Origin: Candidatus Woesearchaeota archaeon
GTDB taxonomy: Archaea > Nanobdellota > Nanobdellia > SCGC-AAA011-G17 > JACPNG01
DNA: 64,000 nt
Direction of reading: 5' to 3'
Assembly: GCA_016185615.1 (NCBI GenBank)
Contig: JACPNE010000005.1
Location: forward strand, 33,622 to 97,621
Shown here: piece after piece, positions 1-6,102 of the stretch
Numbering within the stretch: position 1 is the stretch's first letter
How the letters are laid out: each line of letters begins with the position of its first letter
Translations under genes and position numbers: made by a program
The notes under the pieces: generated by a model
Seen by the model: the letters and a program-made list of their open reading frames with translations, nothing else
Told to the model about the DNA's origin: nothing
Database searches by the model: none

Positions 1-567
1 TATTACCCTCATATAAATGTAACTCGTTCCTTAGAAAATGGAATCCATAAACTTGTAACTGTTCCGGGTTTTTTTAATAATCTTCCATCTTCCTTAGCAT
101 ATATATCAAAAGAAAAATTTGGAATACCTACACATTTTTTTGCAGATTACAAATCATTTGCTCCTTTATTTTTGGATAAAAAAACAGATCAGGAACCAGT
201 TAAAAAATTTCAAGAAGATTATGAAAGGGTAAAATCTTCATCTTTTGATTATGGAGATATAACAACAGAAGAAATCAAATCTAAATTAGAAAAAGGTCAT
301 CTCATCTCATTTGTTACTGGACAAAGTCCAATGTTGCATTATAAGATGATAGTAGGATATAATTTTCGAGGAGATAAAAAGCAATTTAGAGTTTTTGATC
401 CCCAATATGGTGTAACAAATATAGGAGAATCAGAAATTTTATTGAATATGAGAAATGATAAGAGTCTTTGGGGTGTCGAGTATGTTCCTCCAGAATCAGT
501 AATTTTTGATTCTACAAGAGAGTCTATAATTAAAGCTAAGGAATTATTAAGATGGAATCCTCAATAA
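1..567 (+). CDS. Partial protein, 5' end truncated by the window edge, with a C-terminal papain-fold/C39-like peptidase-type His...Asp signature
   Basis: Frame 1 is open from nt 1, with no stop before the TTG at 172 chosen by the ORF caller, so the gene begins upstream of the window. C-terminal LHYKMIVGY...FRVFDP resembles the His and Asp strands of C39/BtrH-like cysteine peptidases. The catalytic Cys was not identified by eye. Confidence 0.35.
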   Translation, partial: YYPHINVTRSLENGIHKLVTVPGFFNNLPSSLAYISKEKFGIPTHFFADYKSFAPLFLDKKTDQEPVKKFQEDYERVKSSSFDYGDITTEEIKSKLEKGHLISFVTGQSPMLHYKMIVGYNFRGDKKQFRVFDPQYGVTNIGESEILLNMRNDKSLWGVEYVPPESVIFDSTRESIIKAKELLRWNPQ

Positions 568-1490
568 ATTTTTACAAAGAAGATAAGGAAAAAGAAGATT
601 TTTGGTTGAATAAGGAATATTTAGTTCAGTTAAATTTAACTGGAGATTGTCCACTCAGTTGTGAGTTTTGTTATATGTCCCCTCACAAAAAGGAATATCT
701 TTCTTTAGATAAGATTAAAAAATTATGGGAAAATCTAAGAAAACATTCCGAAGAAAATGAAATTGAGTATAGAGTCAATCTAACGGGGGGTGATATTTTT
801 GAGCACCCCGATTGGATAAGAATAGCAGAATTTATTTCTAATGAAAAATCAATTACTGCAGTAGATCCTTTAATAAATAAATTTTGGAATAAAGATCATT
901 TAAAATTATTAGATATTCTAAAAGATAAGATAAACTTTGTTCAACTAAATTCAGATGTGGTATCTGAAGAAGATATCGGGGCAGTTAAGAATATTGGTAA
1001 AAAAGTTGTTTTGAAAATTGCTTTATATGGGGGAAATACAAAGAAAAAAATTGAAAAATTAAGAAAACTATCAGAAGAATATGATAATATAATTATTTCT
1101 ATTGATTTAATAATTCCTCAGAAGTATAATCCTGGAAAGAAAGAGGATTATCTAATTTTTGACAAAGAAAAACTTAAAAATGAAGTTGAAAACTTAAGAA
1201 AGATTTTCGGTAAAAAACTTTGGTTGCTAAGCACAACTGTAAAAAGAGAGTATCTTAATGAAATTTATTATTGTCCAGTTCCTTTTGGCGGAGTTTATAT
1301 TATGCCTAATGGAAAAGTTGTACCTTGTTCTAGATATTCTCATTTAGATACAGGATTCAATATTGAAAATTTCGATTTAATCAAATATGTAAAAAAATAT
1401 GATAAACTTTGTTCAAATTTCTGTTTATTTGAAAATAAATATTTTCAAGAGTTTTGGGATGAAAAAGAAAATCCTAAAAACTTTTTTTGA
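552..1490 (+). CDS. Radical SAM enzyme with C-terminal SPASM/twitch-like auxiliary cluster domain
   Basis: CPLSCEFCY is a CX3CX2C radical-SAM cluster motif. C-terminal CPVPFGGVYIMPNGKVVPC fits CX12GX4C, followed by CSNFC. Overlaps the upstream ORF by 16 nt. Confidence 0.8.
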   Translation: MESSINFYKEDKEKEDFWLNKEYLVQLNLTGDCPLSCEFCYMSPHKKEYLSLDKIKKLWENLRKHSEENEIEYRVNLTGGDIFEHPDWIRIAEFISNEKSITAVDPLINKFWNKDHLKLLDILKDKINFVQLNSDVVSEEDIGAVKNIGKKVVLKIALYGGNTKKKIEKLRKLSEEYDNIIISIDLIIPQKYNPGKKEDYLIFDKEKLKNEVENLRKIFGKKLWLLSTTVKREYLNEIYYCPVPFGGVYIMPNGKVVPCSRYSHLDTGFNIENFDLIKYVKKYDKLCSNFCLFENKYFQEFWDEKENPKNFF

Positions 1491-1831
1491 GGCCAAAAAT
1501 GAGCTTAGAAGGAAAAATAGCTTCTCAAGGAAAGGCCGAAGCAAGAGCTTTTGTAACAAACAACCCCTTAGAAAAACCGCCCTTTGAAAATTATATTCTT
1601 GTAACTCAAAGTTCTAATCCAGAAATATCCCATCTTTTATATTATGCTAAAGGGATTATTACAGAAGTTGGTGGACTTATGTCTCATCTAGCTGTTGTTT
1701 CAAGAGAAATTAAAATTCCTTGTATAATTGCTTGTGAAAAAAGTTACAGCGAATTAAAGACCGGATACAATATAAAAATTGATGCAACATCTAAATTAAA
1801 TTCAAGAGTAGGTATTGAATATGATATTTAA
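1487..1831 (+). CDS. PEP-utilising enzyme mobile (swivel phosphohistidine) domain protein, stand-alone
   Basis: GGLMSHLAVVSREIKIPCI matches the phosphohistidine swivel-domain signature of PpsA/PPDK/rifampin-phosphotransferase-type enzymes. The real start is probably the ATG at 1499. Confidence 0.8.
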   Translation: MRPKMSLEGKIASQGKAEARAFVTNNPLEKPPFENYILVTQSSNPEISHLLYYAKGIITEVGGLMSHLAVVSREIKIPCIIACEKSYSELKTGYNIKIDATSKLNSRVGIEYDI

Positions 1832-2555
1832 ATTAGAAGAGGTTGTTGAACGAGAAAAAATATTCGGCAACAAAGCAAGAAATTTAAGTATATTGACTAA
1901 TCAAGGAATTTCAGTTCCTAGAGGAATAGCTGTTAGTTATGAACAATATTTGAATTACTTAAAATCAGGAGTCCTAAACAAAGATTTTGAAAACGAACTT
2001 TTTCAGAAATTGGAAACTTATTCAGAACAATTTGCAGTCAGATCCTCTGCTAATGTAGAAGATTCTGGACAAAGATCATATGCAGGGCAATTTAAAACGA
2101 TTTTAGACGTTTCAAAAAGAAGAATCCCTGAGGCAATAAAACAGGTTTATGATTCTGGAATTAACTTTAACTGTTCTTACTCAAATAATCCTATTAAGAT
2201 GGGAATAGTAATTCAAGAAATGATCAATGCAGAAATCTCAGGGGTTCTATTTACATATGATTTAATTAATCAAGATTCCAATTCCCTTATGATTGAATTA
2301 TCTATGGGTAAATGTGAAAATATAGTTTCTGGGAAAACAAATCCTTCTTTATACATTATTGATAAAAATTCTGGAGAAACTCTTCTTTTTGAAGAAGGGA
2401 GTCAAGATGTTTCTTTAACTGAAAGTCAAACTTATCAAATTCTTTCTAATGCTAATAGAATAGAATCTATCTTTGGAAAACCGCAAGATATAGAATTTTT
2501 ATTTAATTCAAATAAATTTTATTGTCTTCAGAGCAGAGATATTACTACAATATAA
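1815..2555 (+). CDS. PPDK_N / PEP synthase N-terminal ATP-binding (ATP-grasp-like) domain protein, stand-alone
   Basis: FGNKARNLSILTNQGISVPRG and FAVRSSANVEDSGQRSYAGQF are the hallmark motifs of the nucleotide-binding domain of PpsA/PPDK. The likely ATG at 1821 overlaps the upstream stop. Confidence 0.8.
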   Translation: MNMIFKLEEVVEREKIFGNKARNLSILTNQGISVPRGIAVSYEQYLNYLKSGVLNKDFENELFQKLETYSEQFAVRSSANVEDSGQRSYAGQFKTILDVSKRRIPEAIKQVYDSGINFNCSYSNNPIKMGIVIQEMINAEISGVLFTYDLINQDSNSLMIELSMGKCENIVSGKTNPSLYIIDKNSGETLLFEEGSQDVSLTESQTYQILSNANRIESIFGKPQDIEFLFNSNKFYCLQSRDITTI

Positions 2556-2556
2556 A

Positions 2557-3087
2557 ATGAAACAATTAACAGAAGAAAATGCAAGGGAATATGCATCCAA
2601 AAAATTTAAGGAATTGCCAGAATTAGATTTTAAATGGAATCTTATTCATTCTGAGGGAATTATAAAGATATTAAAAATTCTTTGCGAAAATAAGAATATC
2701 AATAAAACCAAATTATTTGCTTTAGCATGGATTCATGACATAGGTAAAATAATCTCTGAAGAAAATCACGCAGAATTAAGTTTAGAAGTATTAAAGAAAG
2801 ACTTTTTTCTTGATGAAGTTGACATAGATTGTATTCTTAATCATGGCTCTTTAGGAAATCCTAAAACTGAAGAAGGAAAAATTTTTAGATATGCAGATGG
2901 ATTATCTTTATTTACAAAAGAGGTCCTTATGTTTAGATTTTTTGCAGAAGCAAAGGAAGGATTTAACTTTGAAGAGATTAAAGAAAGAATTGAAAAAATT
3001 TACAAAAAATACAAATTAAATTATGCAGAATCTGAAGAAATTCTTAGACTTTTAGAAGAATTATATAAAAAGAACTTTTTTAAATAA
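2557..3087 (+). CDS. HD-domain phosphohydrolase
   Basis: WIHDIGK (H...HD motif). The start lies 2 nt after the upstream stop, consistent with the same operon. Confidence 0.6.
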   Translation: MKQLTEENAREYASKKFKELPELDFKWNLIHSEGIIKILKILCENKNINKTKLFALAWIHDIGKIISEENHAELSLEVLKKDFFLDEVDIDCILNHGSLGNPKTEEGKIFRYADGLSLFTKEVLMFRFFAEAKEGFNFEEIKERIEKIYKKYKLNYAESEEILRLLEELYKKNFFK

Positions 3088-3258: not shown

Positions 3259-3762
3259 ATGAAACTGACAAATCAAGATGTTGAGGACTTGATGAGAGAG
3301 ATGTATGGAAAGGAGATTCTTCCATTAGTCAAATTATTGAAAGGAAAGAAAAACGTAAACGAATTTAAGATAGCTGAGAAGCTTGGAATGACCATAAATC
3401 AAGTAAGGAATATGTTCTATAAGCTACAAGAAAAAGGGTTAATTAACTCAACAAGAAAAAAGGACAAGAAAAAAGGATGGTATGTTTATTACTGGACTTT
3501 CAATGATAAAGAAGCAAGAGATTTAATTGTAGAGCACAGACAGAAGAAGATTAATGATCTTAGGAGTAATTTAGCTAGGGAGGAAGAAATAATTTATTTC
3601 ATATGCAAAAATAAGCACGTAAGGATGAGATATGATGATGCTTTGGAAAATGATTTTAGATGTCCTGAATGCGGTGAACTGTTAATAGAAGAGGATAAAG
3701 AAAAAATTCTGAGGAAAATAAGAAGCGATATTAAATCTATGGAAAAAGAGATTAATAATTAA
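3259..3762 (+). CDS. tfe: Transcription factor E (TFE alpha / TFIIE-alpha homologue)
   Basis: N-terminal winged helix (KIAEKLGMTINQVRNMFYKLQEKGLI...GWYVYYW) and a C-terminal zinc ribbon (FICKNKH...CPECG). Confidence 0.75.
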   Translation: MKLTNQDVEDLMREMYGKEILPLVKLLKGKKNVNEFKIAEKLGMTINQVRNMFYKLQEKGLINSTRKKDKKKGWYVYYWTFNDKEARDLIVEHRQKKINDLRSNLAREEEIIYFICKNKHVRMRYDDALENDFRCPECGELLIEEDKEKILRKIRSDIKSMEKEINN

Positions 3763-3764
3763 TT

Positions 3765-3792
3765 ATAGATCAATTCATAGTTTTCTTAATGA
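3765..3792. repeat. Left copy of a 28-bp direct repeat flanking the vapBC module
   Basis: tatagatcaattcatagttttcttaatg versus 4517-4544 tatatatcaattcatagttctctaaata, 24 of 28 identical. The left copy encodes the PIN C-terminus (KTMN*). Confidence 0.6.
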
Positions 3793-4174
3793 ACTCTTCA
3801 GGAGTAAGTATTTTAATATTCTTAAACTCCTTTAATCTTAACAAATGCTTATCTTGTGAGATTATGTAGTCAGCATTTCCAGCAACAGCAGTTTCAATGA
3901 AAATGTTGTCTTTCGGATCATCTTTAATTACTTCTATATTCTCTTTTGGTTCTACAATTGTAGAATTCATTATTATCAAATCAACCCATTCTTTTATCAT
4001 ATCATCCAGAAGTCTGATTTTGAAATCTTTTAATACTTTTATTATTTCTGATATCATATCTAACGAAACAATTAATATGAATCTTCCTTCTTTCCAATCA
4101 ATTATAATTTTATTAGAATCTCCTTTCCAAAATATTCCTGAAATAAAGACATTTGTATCCAAAACTACTTTCAT
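3770..4174 (-). CDS. vapC: PIN-domain toxin (VapC-like)
   Basis: MKVVLDTNVFISG N-terminus with acidic residues typical of PIN (TIGR00305-like). Overlaps the antitoxin gene by 4 nt. Confidence 0.75.
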   Translation of the reverse strand: MKVVLDTNVFISGIFWKGDSNKIIIDWKEGRFILIVSLDMISEIIKVLKDFKIRLLDDMIKEWVDLIIMNSTIVEPKENIEVIKDDPKDNIFIETAVAGNADYIISQDKHLLRLKEFKNIKILTPEEFIKKTMN

Positions 4175-4428
4175 ATTCTTGCTTTTTTTATTGCATTTTC
4201 AACATCAGCTTCAGATATACTCTTTTCTTTAGCGAATTTTTGTGTCTTCCTGAGAAGTTTGCCAAAGTTCTTGAAAGAAGGCATAGAAACCTTTTTCAGT
4301 ATTATTGTGTCTTCTTCCCCTACAACGACAAATTTTTCTCCTTCTTTTAATCCAAGCTGTTCTCTTATCTCTAAGGGTATGACTACTTGTCCTCTTGAAC
4401 TCATACTTGTTATTTCCAATTTTTCCAT
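4171..4428 (-). CDS. vapB: AbrB/SpoVT-family antitoxin (VapB-like)
   Basis: SSRGQVVIPLEIREQLGLKEGEKFVV is the swapped-hairpin AbrB/MazE signature. Lies upstream of and overlaps the PIN gene. Confidence 0.75.
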   Translation of the reverse strand: MEKLEITSMSSRGQVVIPLEIREQLGLKEGEKFVVVGEEDTIILKKVSMPSFKNFGKLLRKTQKFAKEKSISEADVENAIKKARI

Positions 4429-4611: not shown

Positions 4612-5703
4612 ATGGATAAAGAGGCTATTGGTTTATTAGAGGAGACTGTAGGAGAGGCTAGACTAGTTGATACTGGGTTGGAAGCATTAAAAGCATATGA
4701 GGAAAAAGCCCCTTCTTTTAGTCCAGAAAGAAGAAGATTTCTGAAATATTGTGCTGGATTGATTGGAACAGGAGTATTGTCTATTGGTCCTGTAAAGAAA
4801 GCAGAGGCTTTTTTGAATTTGTTTCAAAAAAGAGACTGGAAAGCTCATTTAATGGGACAAGATTTGATTCGTGGTCCTGGATTGTTGATTTGGAAGGGGG
4901 GGTCACAAGACTTTGAAAGACATTTATATCAGCCGGTAAATGAAGGGTATGGAGCAGTTGATTATGAGGTGCTAATAGGAACTCCAATCTGCCCAGTAAA
5001 CTCTGGAAGAATCTGGATCAAAAGAGAAGGTCGCGTACCTGGAATAATTCTAGAATTGCTTCATCAAAGTAATAAAGGATTAATTAGCAGTTCCTATGCT
5101 CACCTATCTAAAAGAATTATTGAGGAAAAAGGAAAAATAGTTGGACTTAGTAATATAATTGCTATGTCTGGTAATAGTGGCTATATCGAAACAGAAGAGC
5201 AACCGGAACACCTTCATCTTCAAATTTCAGATGTAAGGAACATAGGTCCGAAGAATGGTTATAAGAATTGGTATAAAACAATACCTCCTGGCTTAAATCC
5301 ATTTACCCTTGGAATAGATAGAGGAAAACCAGTTTATTGGGACACCAAGACAGAAATGGGTCCCTTCCCTTTAGATTCAAAGCAAATATATATTGAGAGA
5401 CTTATTGATAACATGCAAGAGCGAGTTAAGGAGACAGATATTGATGCTCAGACAAAAAACGAACTTTTGAAAAGAAGAAATCCAGAAGATTTGAGAAATT
5501 ACTTAGAAAAAGAAGTTTTAAAGAAAAATCAAGGTGCTGATGGAAAACTTAGTTATAAATATCTTCCAGGACATTTTATATATGGTCTAATGTTAGAAGT
5601 GTTAAATTATACTGCAAAACACGAAGGTATAGCTATGCTACCATTTCCCTACCCAATGCTTTTGGATTTTTATAAAAAAGAAAATCCAAATGTTTCATTT
5701 TAA
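4612..5703 (+). CDS. Secreted M23/LytM-like peptidase-domain protein with twin-arginine signal
   Basis: RRRFLKYCAGLIGTGVLS is Tat-like. YAHLSKRII...GNSGYIETEEQPEHLHLQI matches the M23 C-terminal HxH region. The upstream HxxxD position reads GYGAVDY, so the His is apparently replaced. Confidence 0.55.
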   Translation: MDKEAIGLLEETVGEARLVDTGLEALKAYEEKAPSFSPERRRFLKYCAGLIGTGVLSIGPVKKAEAFLNLFQKRDWKAHLMGQDLIRGPGLLIWKGGSQDFERHLYQPVNEGYGAVDYEVLIGTPICPVNSGRIWIKREGRVPGIILELLHQSNKGLISSSYAHLSKRIIEEKGKIVGLSNIIAMSGNSGYIETEEQPEHLHLQISDVRNIGPKNGYKNWYKTIPPGLNPFTLGIDRGKPVYWDTKTEMGPFPLDSKQIYIERLIDNMQERVKETDIDAQTKNELLKRRNPEDLRNYLEKEVLKKNQGADGKLSYKYLPGHFIYGLMLEVLNYTAKHEGIAMLPFPYPMLLDFYKKENPNVSF

Positions 5704-5742
5704 TAAATACATTTATATATAATTAATTATTCTACTATAAAT

Positions 5743-6102
5743 ATGAAAAAGAGGGTTAAGAATCTAAAAATTAATTATATAATATTGGTTGTTGTTGTCA
5801 TAATTTTATTGATTATTCTATTTAATATAAAAAATATTATAGCACAAAGTTCAAATTTAATTGTTACATTTAAGAATAAAATAATAACAGCTACTTATAC
5901 TCCAGAAGGGTATTATACTATTAGAAATTATGGTGGTGGTGATGGATCGGATGGTGGAGGTAGTGATAGTGCTGGGGGGGTTGGGGGATCAGCAGATAGT
6001 AGCGATGCTGGAGGAGATAGTGGAGCTGGAGGCTCTGGTGCTGGTGGTGATTCTGGCGATTCTGGTGGAGGAGATGGAGGAGATGGTGGTGACGGATTTT
6101 AA
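5743..6102 (+). CDS. Small membrane-anchored protein with Gly/Ser/Asp-rich low-complexity tail
   Basis: N-terminal TM helix (ILVVVVIILLIILF) and a C-terminal 55-aa GGDGSDGGGSDSAGG... tract. Confidence 0.4.
   Translation: MKKRVKNLKINYIILVVVVIILLIILFNIKNIIAQSSNLIVTFKNKIITATYTPEGYYTIRNYGGGDGSDGGGSDSAGGVGGSADSSDAGGDSGAGGSGAGGDSGDSGGGDGGDGGDGF

Follow-up and report, generated by a model that had tools for sequence, protein, structure and literature searches.

In the small genome (668 kb) of a Candidatus Woesearchaeota archaeon, five co-directional genes for a peptidase-like protein, a radical SAM enzyme, two phosphotransfer modules and an HD hydrolase are packed together, which raises the question of whether this archaeon of tiny, symbiotic type carries a pathway for making a modified peptide. 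An earlier note, based on the sequence alone, had proposed a RiPP-type cassette with no visible precursor gene. We analysed the locus in the window, a 64,000-nt stretch of contig JACPNE010000005.1 (assembly GCA_016185615.1), and in the sequence just upstream of it. The RiPP-type reading is supported, and none of the findings that would have contradicted it (a housekeeping assignment of the radical SAM protein, lack of a peptidase fold in the first gene, or a lack of co-occurrence of the five genes in related genomes) was obtained. The gene set looks like an undescribed pathway, although no product, modification or expression has been observed and all of the data come from metagenome-assembled genomes.

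The gene set and its domains

The ORFs in the window are all on the + strand, the first being 5'-open. They overlap by 16, 4 and 17 nt and then leave a 1-nt gap. Together with a sixth gene outside the window, the features are as follows (C5 and L002 denote the contig and locus numbering of this analysis).

C5:32588-32683 (L002:10967-11062; 1033 to 938 nt before window base 1), + strand: candidate precursor peptide gene, 31 aa, MEKEKNLKIVNHKNVEKICGAGSDENAEDKE; its stop lies 3 nt before the start of the next gene, and a TATA-like box lies about 80 nt upstream of it.
1..567, + strand: in-window part (residues 313-500) of a 500-aa two-domain protein whose gene starts 935 nt before window base 1, at C5:32686 = L002:11065.
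552..1490, + strand: radical SAM enzyme of 312 aa with a C-terminal twitch-like domain carrying one auxiliary cluster.
1487..1831, + strand: stand-alone phosphohistidine swivel domain protein of 114 aa (PEP-utilizers).
1815..2555, + strand: stand-alone ATP-grasp nucleotide-binding protein of 246 aa (PPDK_N).
2557..3087, + strand: HD-domain phosphohydrolase-like protein of 176 aa, the last gene of the operon; T-runs follow its stop codon.

The 500-aa protein consists of an all-helical domain of unknown family (residues 1 to about 290) and a C39-like papain-fold domain (from about 292 to 500). The His...Asp signature that the earlier note had seen in the truncated ORF is real: H425 lies at window 337-339 and D445 at 397-399, whereas the matching nucleophile C301 and Q296 lie 35 and 50 nt before base 1. 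The Gln/Cys/His/Asp set is invariant in 15 and in 9 diverse sequences. The AlphaFold model has a pLDDT of 88.4, and its best PDB match is the double-glycine leader peptidase LahT150 bound to its leader (6mpz), at probability 1.00 and TM 0.62 on the target, while the N-terminal helical domain has no structural or sequence relative. However, in a profile search Peptidase_C39_2 scored E 0.0077 with the full profile aligned, and its 17.2 bits are below the Pfam cut-off of 24. In the cassette labelled L019 the equivalent gene is a bona fide C39-type peptidase, with DUF3335 at 2.3e-12 (47 bits) and Peptidase_C39 at 23.7 bits against a cut-off of 22, and the distant family members P0081, P0087 and P0093 also score above the cut-off. 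In contrast to the double-glycine leader peptidase domains of PCAT/AMS transporters, the protein is not fused to an ABC transporter, has no membrane part and carries the helical N-domain.

The radical SAM enzyme scores E 1e-8 for PF04055 (36 bits against a cut-off of 29.5), with the motif C33-P-L-S-C37-E-F-C40 at window 648-671 and all three cysteines invariant. The earlier note had placed its C-terminal region among SPASM/twitch domains on the basis of a CX12GX4C...CX3C arrangement. Indeed, CX12GX4C is C241...G254...C259 and CX3C is C287/C291, but the SPASM model (PF13186) scores E 0.0028, or 18.3 bits against 21.5, and only its positions 1-31 of 67 align. Across the family C241 and C259 are invariant, C291 is present in at least 90% of sequences and C287 is not conserved, and the domain is therefore one-cluster and twitch-like rather than a full seven-Cys SPASM. 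The AF2 model has a pLDDT of 93.7, and the nearest structures are MoaA, PqqE, EpeE/YydG, ChlB, TigE and BtrN at TM about 0.55.

Every NCBIfam hit of this enzyme is far below its cut-off, including MoaA (16 bits against 325), PqqE (12.7 against 381) and the best one, YydG (TIGR04078; 35.3 against 300, with only residues 25-141 aligned). As in the epipeptide system YydF/YydG (EpeX/EpeE), a radical SAM enzyme of about 310-320 aa with an auxiliary-cluster domain lies next to a short peptide gene. However, the fold match to EpeE is at TM 0.55 and rmsd 4.5-5, sequence identity is about 17%, only three conserved auxiliary Cys are present, and the partner genes differ completely, with no membrane protease and no ABC exporter.

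A viperin-like conflict or defence system, in which the radical SAM enzyme, kinase and HD protein would act on a nucleotide or another small molecule and the small ORF would be a regulatory upstream ORF or an unrelated small protein, was also considered. There are weak PADLOC pVip hits (E 3e-6) and a weak NCBIfam viperin hit (28 bits against a cut-off of 180), some prokaryotic viperins are kinase-associated, HD domains often act on nucleotides, and a PIN/MazE-type toxin-antitoxin pair lies 700 nt downstream. However, the PADLOC match, of 24.8 bits, covers only residues 25-96 around the CX3CX2C region, viperins lack a twitch domain, and the other four proteins give no PADLOC hit apart from a 12-bit Cas3-HD match. 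We consider this alternative very unlikely, also in view of the peptide data below.

The swivel protein scores 2.1e-18 for PF00391, with the catalytic His67 in GGLMSHLAVVSRE (motif GG-x-x-S-H) at window 1685-1687, and NCBIfam aligns it to the C-terminal swivel of PRK06241/RPH-type enzymes. PPDK_N (PF01326) scores 9.4e-40 and is the only such gene in the genome. No PEP/pyruvate-binding domain (PF02896) exists anywhere in the genome, while the controls were positive in 14 of 14 genomes; a true three-domain PEP synthase exists in the genome labelled G145 for comparison. The pair is thus not a PEP synthase, and the suggestion in the earlier note of a kinase of rifampin-phosphotransferase style fits the best NCBIfam hits of both proteins, as RPH, PigC/RedH and PRK06241-type enzymes also combine an ATP-grasp domain with a swivel and no TIM barrel. 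Here, however, the two domains are separate genes in the reverse order, the ATP-grasp protein is shortened, the substrate-binding module is presumably supplied by another protein, and family scores are far below their cut-offs (RIF_Ptrans_rph 51 and 96 bits against 999; PigC 106 against 1300). The HD protein scores 6.8e-10 for PF01966, with the HD dyad at window 2734-2739.

A candidate precursor peptide gene

The earlier note was correct that no precursor gene is visible inside the window, but one candidate lies just outside it. Homologous peptides of 18-45 aa, each with one Cys, accompany 15 of 15 related cassettes whose upstream sequence is intact, next to the C39-like gene or the radical SAM gene, including cassettes whose radical SAM enzyme is only 42-50% identical. 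Substitutions by codon position run 69/27/102, the pattern of a coding sequence, and the peptide is under purifying selection. The peptides share the core [NK]-[VI]-E-[KR]-[ILV]-C-G-x, with Gly at Cys+1 in 14 of 15 and hydrophobic residues at Cys-1, -4, -9 and -12, and the motif is unique in the genome. In G145 and in the cassette labelled L018 the order is swivel, peptide, C39-like, rSAM, so that the peptide stays next to the C39-like gene in the middle of the operon, which argues against a mere 5' regulatory uORF. The leader-peptidase-like domain is the most constant partner of the peptide.

If the peptide is cut after Cys+2, Gly falls at P-2 and hydrophobic residues at P-4, -7, -12 and -15, which resembles a double-glycine leader if the pattern taken here as canonical holds. 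However, P-1 is A, L, V or P and not the canonical G, A or S, and the peptide does not fit a simple leader-plus-core model: the conserved part looks like a leader, while the tail is variable and is absent in the cassettes L034, L035 and L045, whose peptides end exactly at the predicted P-1, so that the bond cut in those systems is unclear. In addition, no PqqD or RRE hit was found in any cassette protein, the radical SAM enzyme has only about 25 residues before its CX3CX2C motif, and no recognisable exporter or immunity gene is conserved; the helical N-domain may substitute for a leader-recognition element, but this is only inferred.

These features leave room for a second reading, in which the same enzymes carve a small molecule or cofactor from the C-terminal Cys-Gly-x of a carrier peptide, as in the mycofactocin, PQQ or 3-thiaglutamate "pearlin" pathways, the N-terminal part being only a handle and the papain-like enzyme releasing the modified C-terminal residues. 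In its favour, the conserved core sits at or near the very C-terminus, three peptides of 18-40 aa end in C-G-A or C-G-P with no tail, the catalytic set is kept in those tail-less systems, so that the peptidase must cut somewhere other than a tail, PqqE is among the best fold matches, no exporter or immunity gene is conserved, and the mycofactocin precursor MftA probably ends in C-G-V-Y. The mycofactocin and PQQ pathways likewise combine a short peptide with a conserved C-terminal core, a twitch/SPASM radical SAM enzyme and a peptidase. However, here there is no RRE chaperone (MftB/PqqD), the peptidase type is different and a phosphotransferase is present, no MftC or PqqE family score comes near its cut-off, and most peptides carry tails that would first have to be removed. 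A cofactor would also be expected to co-occur with enzymes that depend on it and to be inherited vertically, which is not what the distribution shows. We regard this reading as unlikely, though not negligible.

Distribution and co-occurrence of the cassette

The cassette is rare. Orthologues occur in 1 of 200 other genomes of the order, in neither of the two same-genus genomes searched, and in 2 of 400 other genomes of the phylum, with 103 representatives among 1.84 billion proteins; the radical SAM family has only 34 clusters among 5.8 billion proteins. It looks laterally transferred, as it is 76-89% identical to that of the genome G274 where AlaRS is 57% identical, while the same-genus genome G138 has AlaRS at 81% but lacks the cassette, and flanking genes differ at every site. 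It is often decayed, decayed copies being P0055, P0033, G319 and L046. Such a patchy and decaying distribution is typical of defence genes, but it effectively refutes a housekeeping maturation system (for a cofactor, a tRNA or a protein such as a glycyl-radical enzyme) that happens to be clustered, despite the MoaA-like fold and the loose resemblance of the peptide core [IV]-E-[RK]-[IV]-C-G to the glycyl-radical signature, probably [STIV]-x-R-[IVT]-[CSA]-G-Y in PROSITE.

All five enzyme genes are found together in G274, L041, L042 and L019, and four of them in L025, and a core of the C39-like gene, the rSAM and the swivel recurs elsewhere. HD and PPDK_N are facultative members: they are missing next to several cassettes, HD being absent in L025, G145 and L018. 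L036 lacks the rSAM. A functional link is indicated by the CPR-bacterial protein P0111, which fuses the N-domain, the C39-like domain, PPDK_N and the swivel in one 850-aa protein (hhalign probability 94%), and by L034, which has PPDK_N and swivel fused in one protein next to its cassette.

A possible pathway and its biology

Taken together, the explanation we favour, with fair confidence, is a dedicated RiPP-type operon of six genes transcribed from one TATA-like promoter upstream of the peptide gene, with intact catalytic residues in all enzymes. The mechanism is inferred. The 500-aa protein would bind the peptide the way LahT binds a double-glycine leader and remove the variable tail after C-G-x; this binding would place the Cys (P-3) next to the active site, and the protein would also act as a scaffold for the other enzymes. 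The radical SAM enzyme would abstract a hydrogen atom at or next to the invariant Cys-Gly, creating a thioether-type or other radical modification. PPDK_N would use ATP to phosphorylate His67 of the swivel protein, which would deliver the phosphoryl group to the peptide or an intermediate held by the 500-aa protein, in the manner of a rifampin phosphotransferase or PigC rather than a PEP synthase, and HD, where present, would remove that phosphate or a by-product. The product would be a short modified peptide or a small molecule cut from its C-terminal end, probably serving interaction with hosts or competitors rather than core metabolism.

The enzyme combination appears undescribed, and no member of the RPH/PigC group has been linked to a ribosomal peptide in the literature we could search. 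It is possible, although tentative, that this is a new class of ribosomal-peptide pathway confined to ultra-small symbionts, namely DPANN archaea with relatives in CPR bacteria, in which a leader-like peptide ending at or near h-C-G-x is held by a cytoplasmic C39-like scaffold-protease and worked on at its single Cys by a twitch radical SAM enzyme and by a PEP-synthase-type phosphohistidine relay. It would be the first ribosomal peptide pathway to use such a relay, possible chemistry being phosphoryl activation of the conserved Glu (Cys-3) or of the C-terminus for thioester or ligation chemistry, or phosphorylation of a radical-generated enol. In that case, the product would be a reactive peptide or Cys-derived small molecule used in the interaction with the host or with prey.

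Gene set of the cassette and its predicted proteins

The window (C5:33622-97621, contig C5 of the genome studied here, G000) belongs to a 668-kb genome in 8 contigs, with about 29% G+C. Five co-directional ORFs were found exactly at the positions proposed in the earlier note, and these and the neighboring genes downstream are as follows, in window coordinates:

1..567, open at the 5' end, in-window part of a 500-aa protein with a C39-like domain
552..1490, radical SAM enzyme (rSAM)
1487..1831, stand-alone swivel protein (PEP-utilizers)
1815..2555, PPDK_N protein
2557..3087, HD protein
3259..3762, transcription factor E alpha
3770-4428 (- strand), toxin-antitoxin pair, 700 nt downstream of the cassette, consisting of a PIN_3 domain protein (133 aa, 2.3e-20) and a MazE/AbrB-type antitoxin (84 aa, 1e-9)
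4612-6102 (+ strand), a 363-aa Peptidase_M23 protein with a twin-arginine-like N-terminus (RRRFLKYCAG...), followed by a 119-aa membrane-anchored protein rich in Gly, Ser and Asp

In profile searches Radical_SAM scored above its cut-off (E 1e-8), with the motif C33-P-L-S-C37-E-F-C40, while the SPASM model scored below its cut-off (E 0.0028) and only the first half of the model aligned. PEP-utilizers scored 2.1e-18, with the catalytic His67 in GGLMSHLAVVSRE, PPDK_N scored 9.4e-40 and HD 6.8e-10. T-runs after the HD stop mark the end of the operon.

Reading 12 kb upstream showed that the first ORF encodes a 500-aa protein starting 935 nt before the window. In an alignment of 15 family members Q296, C301, H425 and D445 are invariant, which is a complete papain-type catalytic set, and a block of N-terminal residues is also invariant (Y83, P102, N119, Y123, E129, K130, D236, E240 and D252). 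Pfam gave only a sub-threshold Peptidase_C39_2 hit (E 0.0077), although the whole profile aligned, and no PDB sequence hit was obtained with the full protein. The AlphaFold model (pLDDT 88.4, pTM 0.86) shows an all-helical domain (residues 1 to about 290) packed against an alpha/beta domain. The best PDB match of the alpha/beta domain is the double-glycine leader peptidase LahT150 bound to its leader (6mpz), at probability 1.00 and TM 0.62 on the target, followed by papain-family proteases, while the helical domain had no fold match. In the same upstream region, about 7-10 kb from the window, the leucyl-tRNA synthetase (996 aa; C5:23882-26872, or L002:2261-5251 in the upstream locus L002) carries an inserted alpha/beta serine-hydrolase domain at residues 240-395, with a GHSLGS motif and a match to Pfam Ser_hydrolase at 6.9e-10. 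The insert lies between the catalytic core and the editing domain.

In the alignment of the rSAM family C33, C37 and C40 are invariant, as are C241 and C259, whereas C291 is present in at least 90% of sequences and C287 is variable. This points to one auxiliary cluster, a twitch-like domain, rather than a full SPASM. The model is confident (pLDDT 93.7), and the nearest structures are MoaA, PqqE, the peptide epimerase EpeE/YydG, ChlB, TigE and BtrN, all at TM about 0.55 and 13-17% identity. Every curated NCBIfam family scores far below its cut-off, with YydG as the best at 35 bits against 300. The enzyme therefore belongs to the peptide- and small-molecule-modifying twitch/SPASM group but to no described family. 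A defence function was also considered, but the PADLOC defence models gave only N-terminal viperin-like noise, so this reading was rejected.

The best NCBIfam matches of the swivel and PPDK_N proteins are the PRK06241-type 'PEP synthase-like' proteins, rifampin phosphotransferase and PigC/RedH. The genome contains no PEP/pyruvate-binding domain at all, in a search whose controls were positive in 14 of 14 genomes, and no other PPDK_N gene. The pair is therefore not a PEP synthase, as the earlier note had argued, but a split ATP-to-phosphohistidine relay that needs another acceptor site.

A candidate precursor peptide upstream of the C39-like gene

A small ORF ends 3 nt before the start of the 500-aa gene:

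C5:32588-32683, 1033 to 938 nt before window base 1, candidate precursor peptide gene encoding MEKEKNLKIVNHKNVEKICGAGSDENAEDKE

Homologous ORFs of 18-45 aa occur in all 15 related cassettes whose upstream sequence is intact, including systems whose rSAM is only 42-53% identical. Referring to retrieved loci by L and to genomes by G, examples are MAEEIKVVDFPNVEKLCGLGPDNDEE (L025), MKNKKTTLEKKNLNLKVVEHTNIERICGAGEEE (G145), MGKILRIVHISNIERVCGP (L035, a MAG named Aenigmatarchaeota), MKKIKVKDLEKVEKVCGP (L045) and ...KFANIEKVCGA (L034). Each peptide has exactly one Cys. Relative to that Cys, position -3 is Glu in 14 of 15 peptides, position +1 is Gly in 14 of 15, position -5 is Asn in 13 of 15, and positions -1, -4, -9 and -12 are hydrophobic in 12 to 15 of 15. 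Among six close loci substitutions fall 69/27/102 on codon positions 1/2/3, and in distant loci the N-V-E-K-I-C-G core is kept through synonymous changes. The ORF is therefore coding and under purifying selection. A genome-wide scan found no further copies of the motif.

The ORF keeps its place next to the C39-like gene when the operon is permuted, the order being swivel, peptide, C39-like, rSAM in G145 and L018, and in L019 it precedes the rSAM, which argues against a mere 5' regulatory ORF. Upstream of the peptide gene (L002:10880-10950, about 1050-1120 nt before window base 1) a conserved TATA-like box (AAATTTATATATA) is followed by a conserved short hairpin-like element (AGAGGTGATAAACCTCGG) in the 5' leader of the gene, both shared by G000, G274, G319 and L038 and partly by L039. 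If the peptide is cut after Cys+2, Gly is at P-2 and the hydrophobic positions become P-4, P-7, P-12 and P-15, which appears to be the recognition pattern of double-glycine leaders. Three peptides end exactly at that P-1 position.

Distribution, mobility and physical linkage

The rSAM family has 34 clusters and the 500-aa family has 25 clusters among 5.8 billion proteins. An exhaustive HMMER search found 103 representatives at E <= 1e-3 and 17 at E <= 1e-30 among 1.84 billion, and a second word-index search with a divergent alignment found no new members. The hosts are named Woesearchaeota, Pacearchaeota, Nanoarchaeia/Nanoarchaeota and Aenigmatarchaeota MAGs. A 4.7-kb contig carrying the peptide gene and the 500-aa gene (87% identical) is binned as 'Candidatus Saccharibacteria' (L039, CAZQHF010000051.1), and is probably a mis-binned DPANN contig or, less likely, a sign of cross-domain transfer. 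The only bacterial homologue of the rSAM (30% identity), in a Candidatus Collierbacteria MAG (L021:6001-12608), sits in a different cluster, with ORFs of 154, 345, 52 and 88 aa and a 541-aa Asn-synthase-like protein (3.7e-5), an arrangement reminiscent of a lasso-peptide cluster with a radical SAM tailoring enzyme.

All five enzyme genes co-occur in G274, L041, L042 and L019, and four of them in L025, while the C39-like gene, the rSAM and the swivel recur in G145, L017, L018 and L038. In L019 the 500-aa protein is replaced by a 189-aa bona fide C39/DUF3335 peptidase, as settled by Pfam, and a 317-aa protein. BLAST and hhalign could not formally link these split proteins to the two halves of the 500-aa protein, nor the 154- and 345-aa products of the two genes after the CPR rSAM homologue (E values 0.005-0.16, low probabilities). 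G145 lacks its own PPDK_N but has a genuine three-domain PEP synthase elsewhere, and it is possible, judging from this single case, that this enzyme might charge the stand-alone swivel.

Orthologues occur in 1 of 200 other genomes of the order, in neither of two same-genus genomes, and in 2 of 400 other genomes of the phylum. G274 belongs to a different order, and its cassette proteins are 76-89% identical to those of the window while AlaRS is 57% identical; in the same-genus genome G138, AlaRS is 81% identical. The flanking genes differ at every site, and this is the signature of lateral transfer. Moreover, several copies are decayed. The representative proteins P0055 and P0033 looked like gene fusions, but they are internal deletions of the cassette, P0055 joining the 500-aa gene to PPDK_N with a frameshifted peptide tail and P0033 joining the rSAM N-terminus to the swivel, and they were rejected as Rosetta-stone evidence. 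G319 has a 181-aa rSAM stub, and L046 keeps only the 500-aa gene and nine codons of the rSAM. The cassette is therefore accessory, not housekeeping.

A third representative protein, P0111 (850 aa), aligns to both domains of the 500-aa family (HMMER E 5e-7, hhalign probability 94%), keeps the Q/C, H and D positions, and then continues into PPDK_N followed by a swivel. Since the PPDK_N-to-swivel order differs from the cassette order, this is not a deletion artefact, and as both catalytic sets are also intact it was accepted as evidence of linkage. Trp stands where Gly is conserved in PPDK_N and in the swivel motif, for example EDWWNKSYAWCF against EDSGQRSYAGQF, which suggests a UGA = Gly (code 25) CPR bacterium translated with the wrong code. 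In L034, PPDK_N and swivel are fused in one 518-aa protein beside the cassette.

A possible RiPP-type pathway in minimal genomes

Taken together, the evidence supports a RiPP-type maturation operon whose substrate is the upstream peptide, although the mechanism can only be inferred. The 500-aa protein would bind the leader-like peptide as LahT does, trim the variable tail after C-G-x and position the Cys (P-3) at a composite active site, where the rSAM would abstract a hydrogen atom at or next to Cys-Gly. PPDK_N and the swivel would deliver a phosphoryl group from ATP through His67 to the peptide or an intermediate, and HD would remove that phosphate. However, several features do not fit a textbook RiPP. 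There is no RRE, exporter or immunity gene, the conserved part of the peptide looks like a leader while the 'core' tail is variable or absent, and the peptidase keeps its catalytic residues even in tail-less systems. In addition, L036 lacks the rSAM and instead has, at L036:3815-5011, a 398-aa HExxH protein (HELGH) with no Pfam hit, which precedes the C39-like gene and ends in AEAYCGS. This protein was considered as a protein-sized substrate, but a separate 27-aa ORF carrying KICGAG lies upstream of it, so the C-terminal match may be coincidence. Because of these points we cannot exclude a mycofactocin- or PQQ-like pathway, in which a small molecule is carved from the C-terminal Cys-Gly-x, and there is also room for ligation or thioester chemistry.

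Ribosomal-peptide maturation clusters are already known, but in full-text literature searches we found no description of this gene combination, and both the enzyme set and the peptide family appear to be unreported. The cassette brings together a PEP-synthase-type phosphoryl relay, a radical SAM enzyme and a leader-type cysteine peptidase, possibly acting on one peptide, and it gives a function-linked context for an unknown helical domain of about 290 aa. It is about 4 kb and comes with a defined 31-aa substrate candidate, so it can be expressed in the laboratory. DPANN archaea and CPR bacteria have minimal genomes, and few natural-product pathways are known from them. The lateral spread and frequent loss of the cassette suggest a role in host or competitor interaction.
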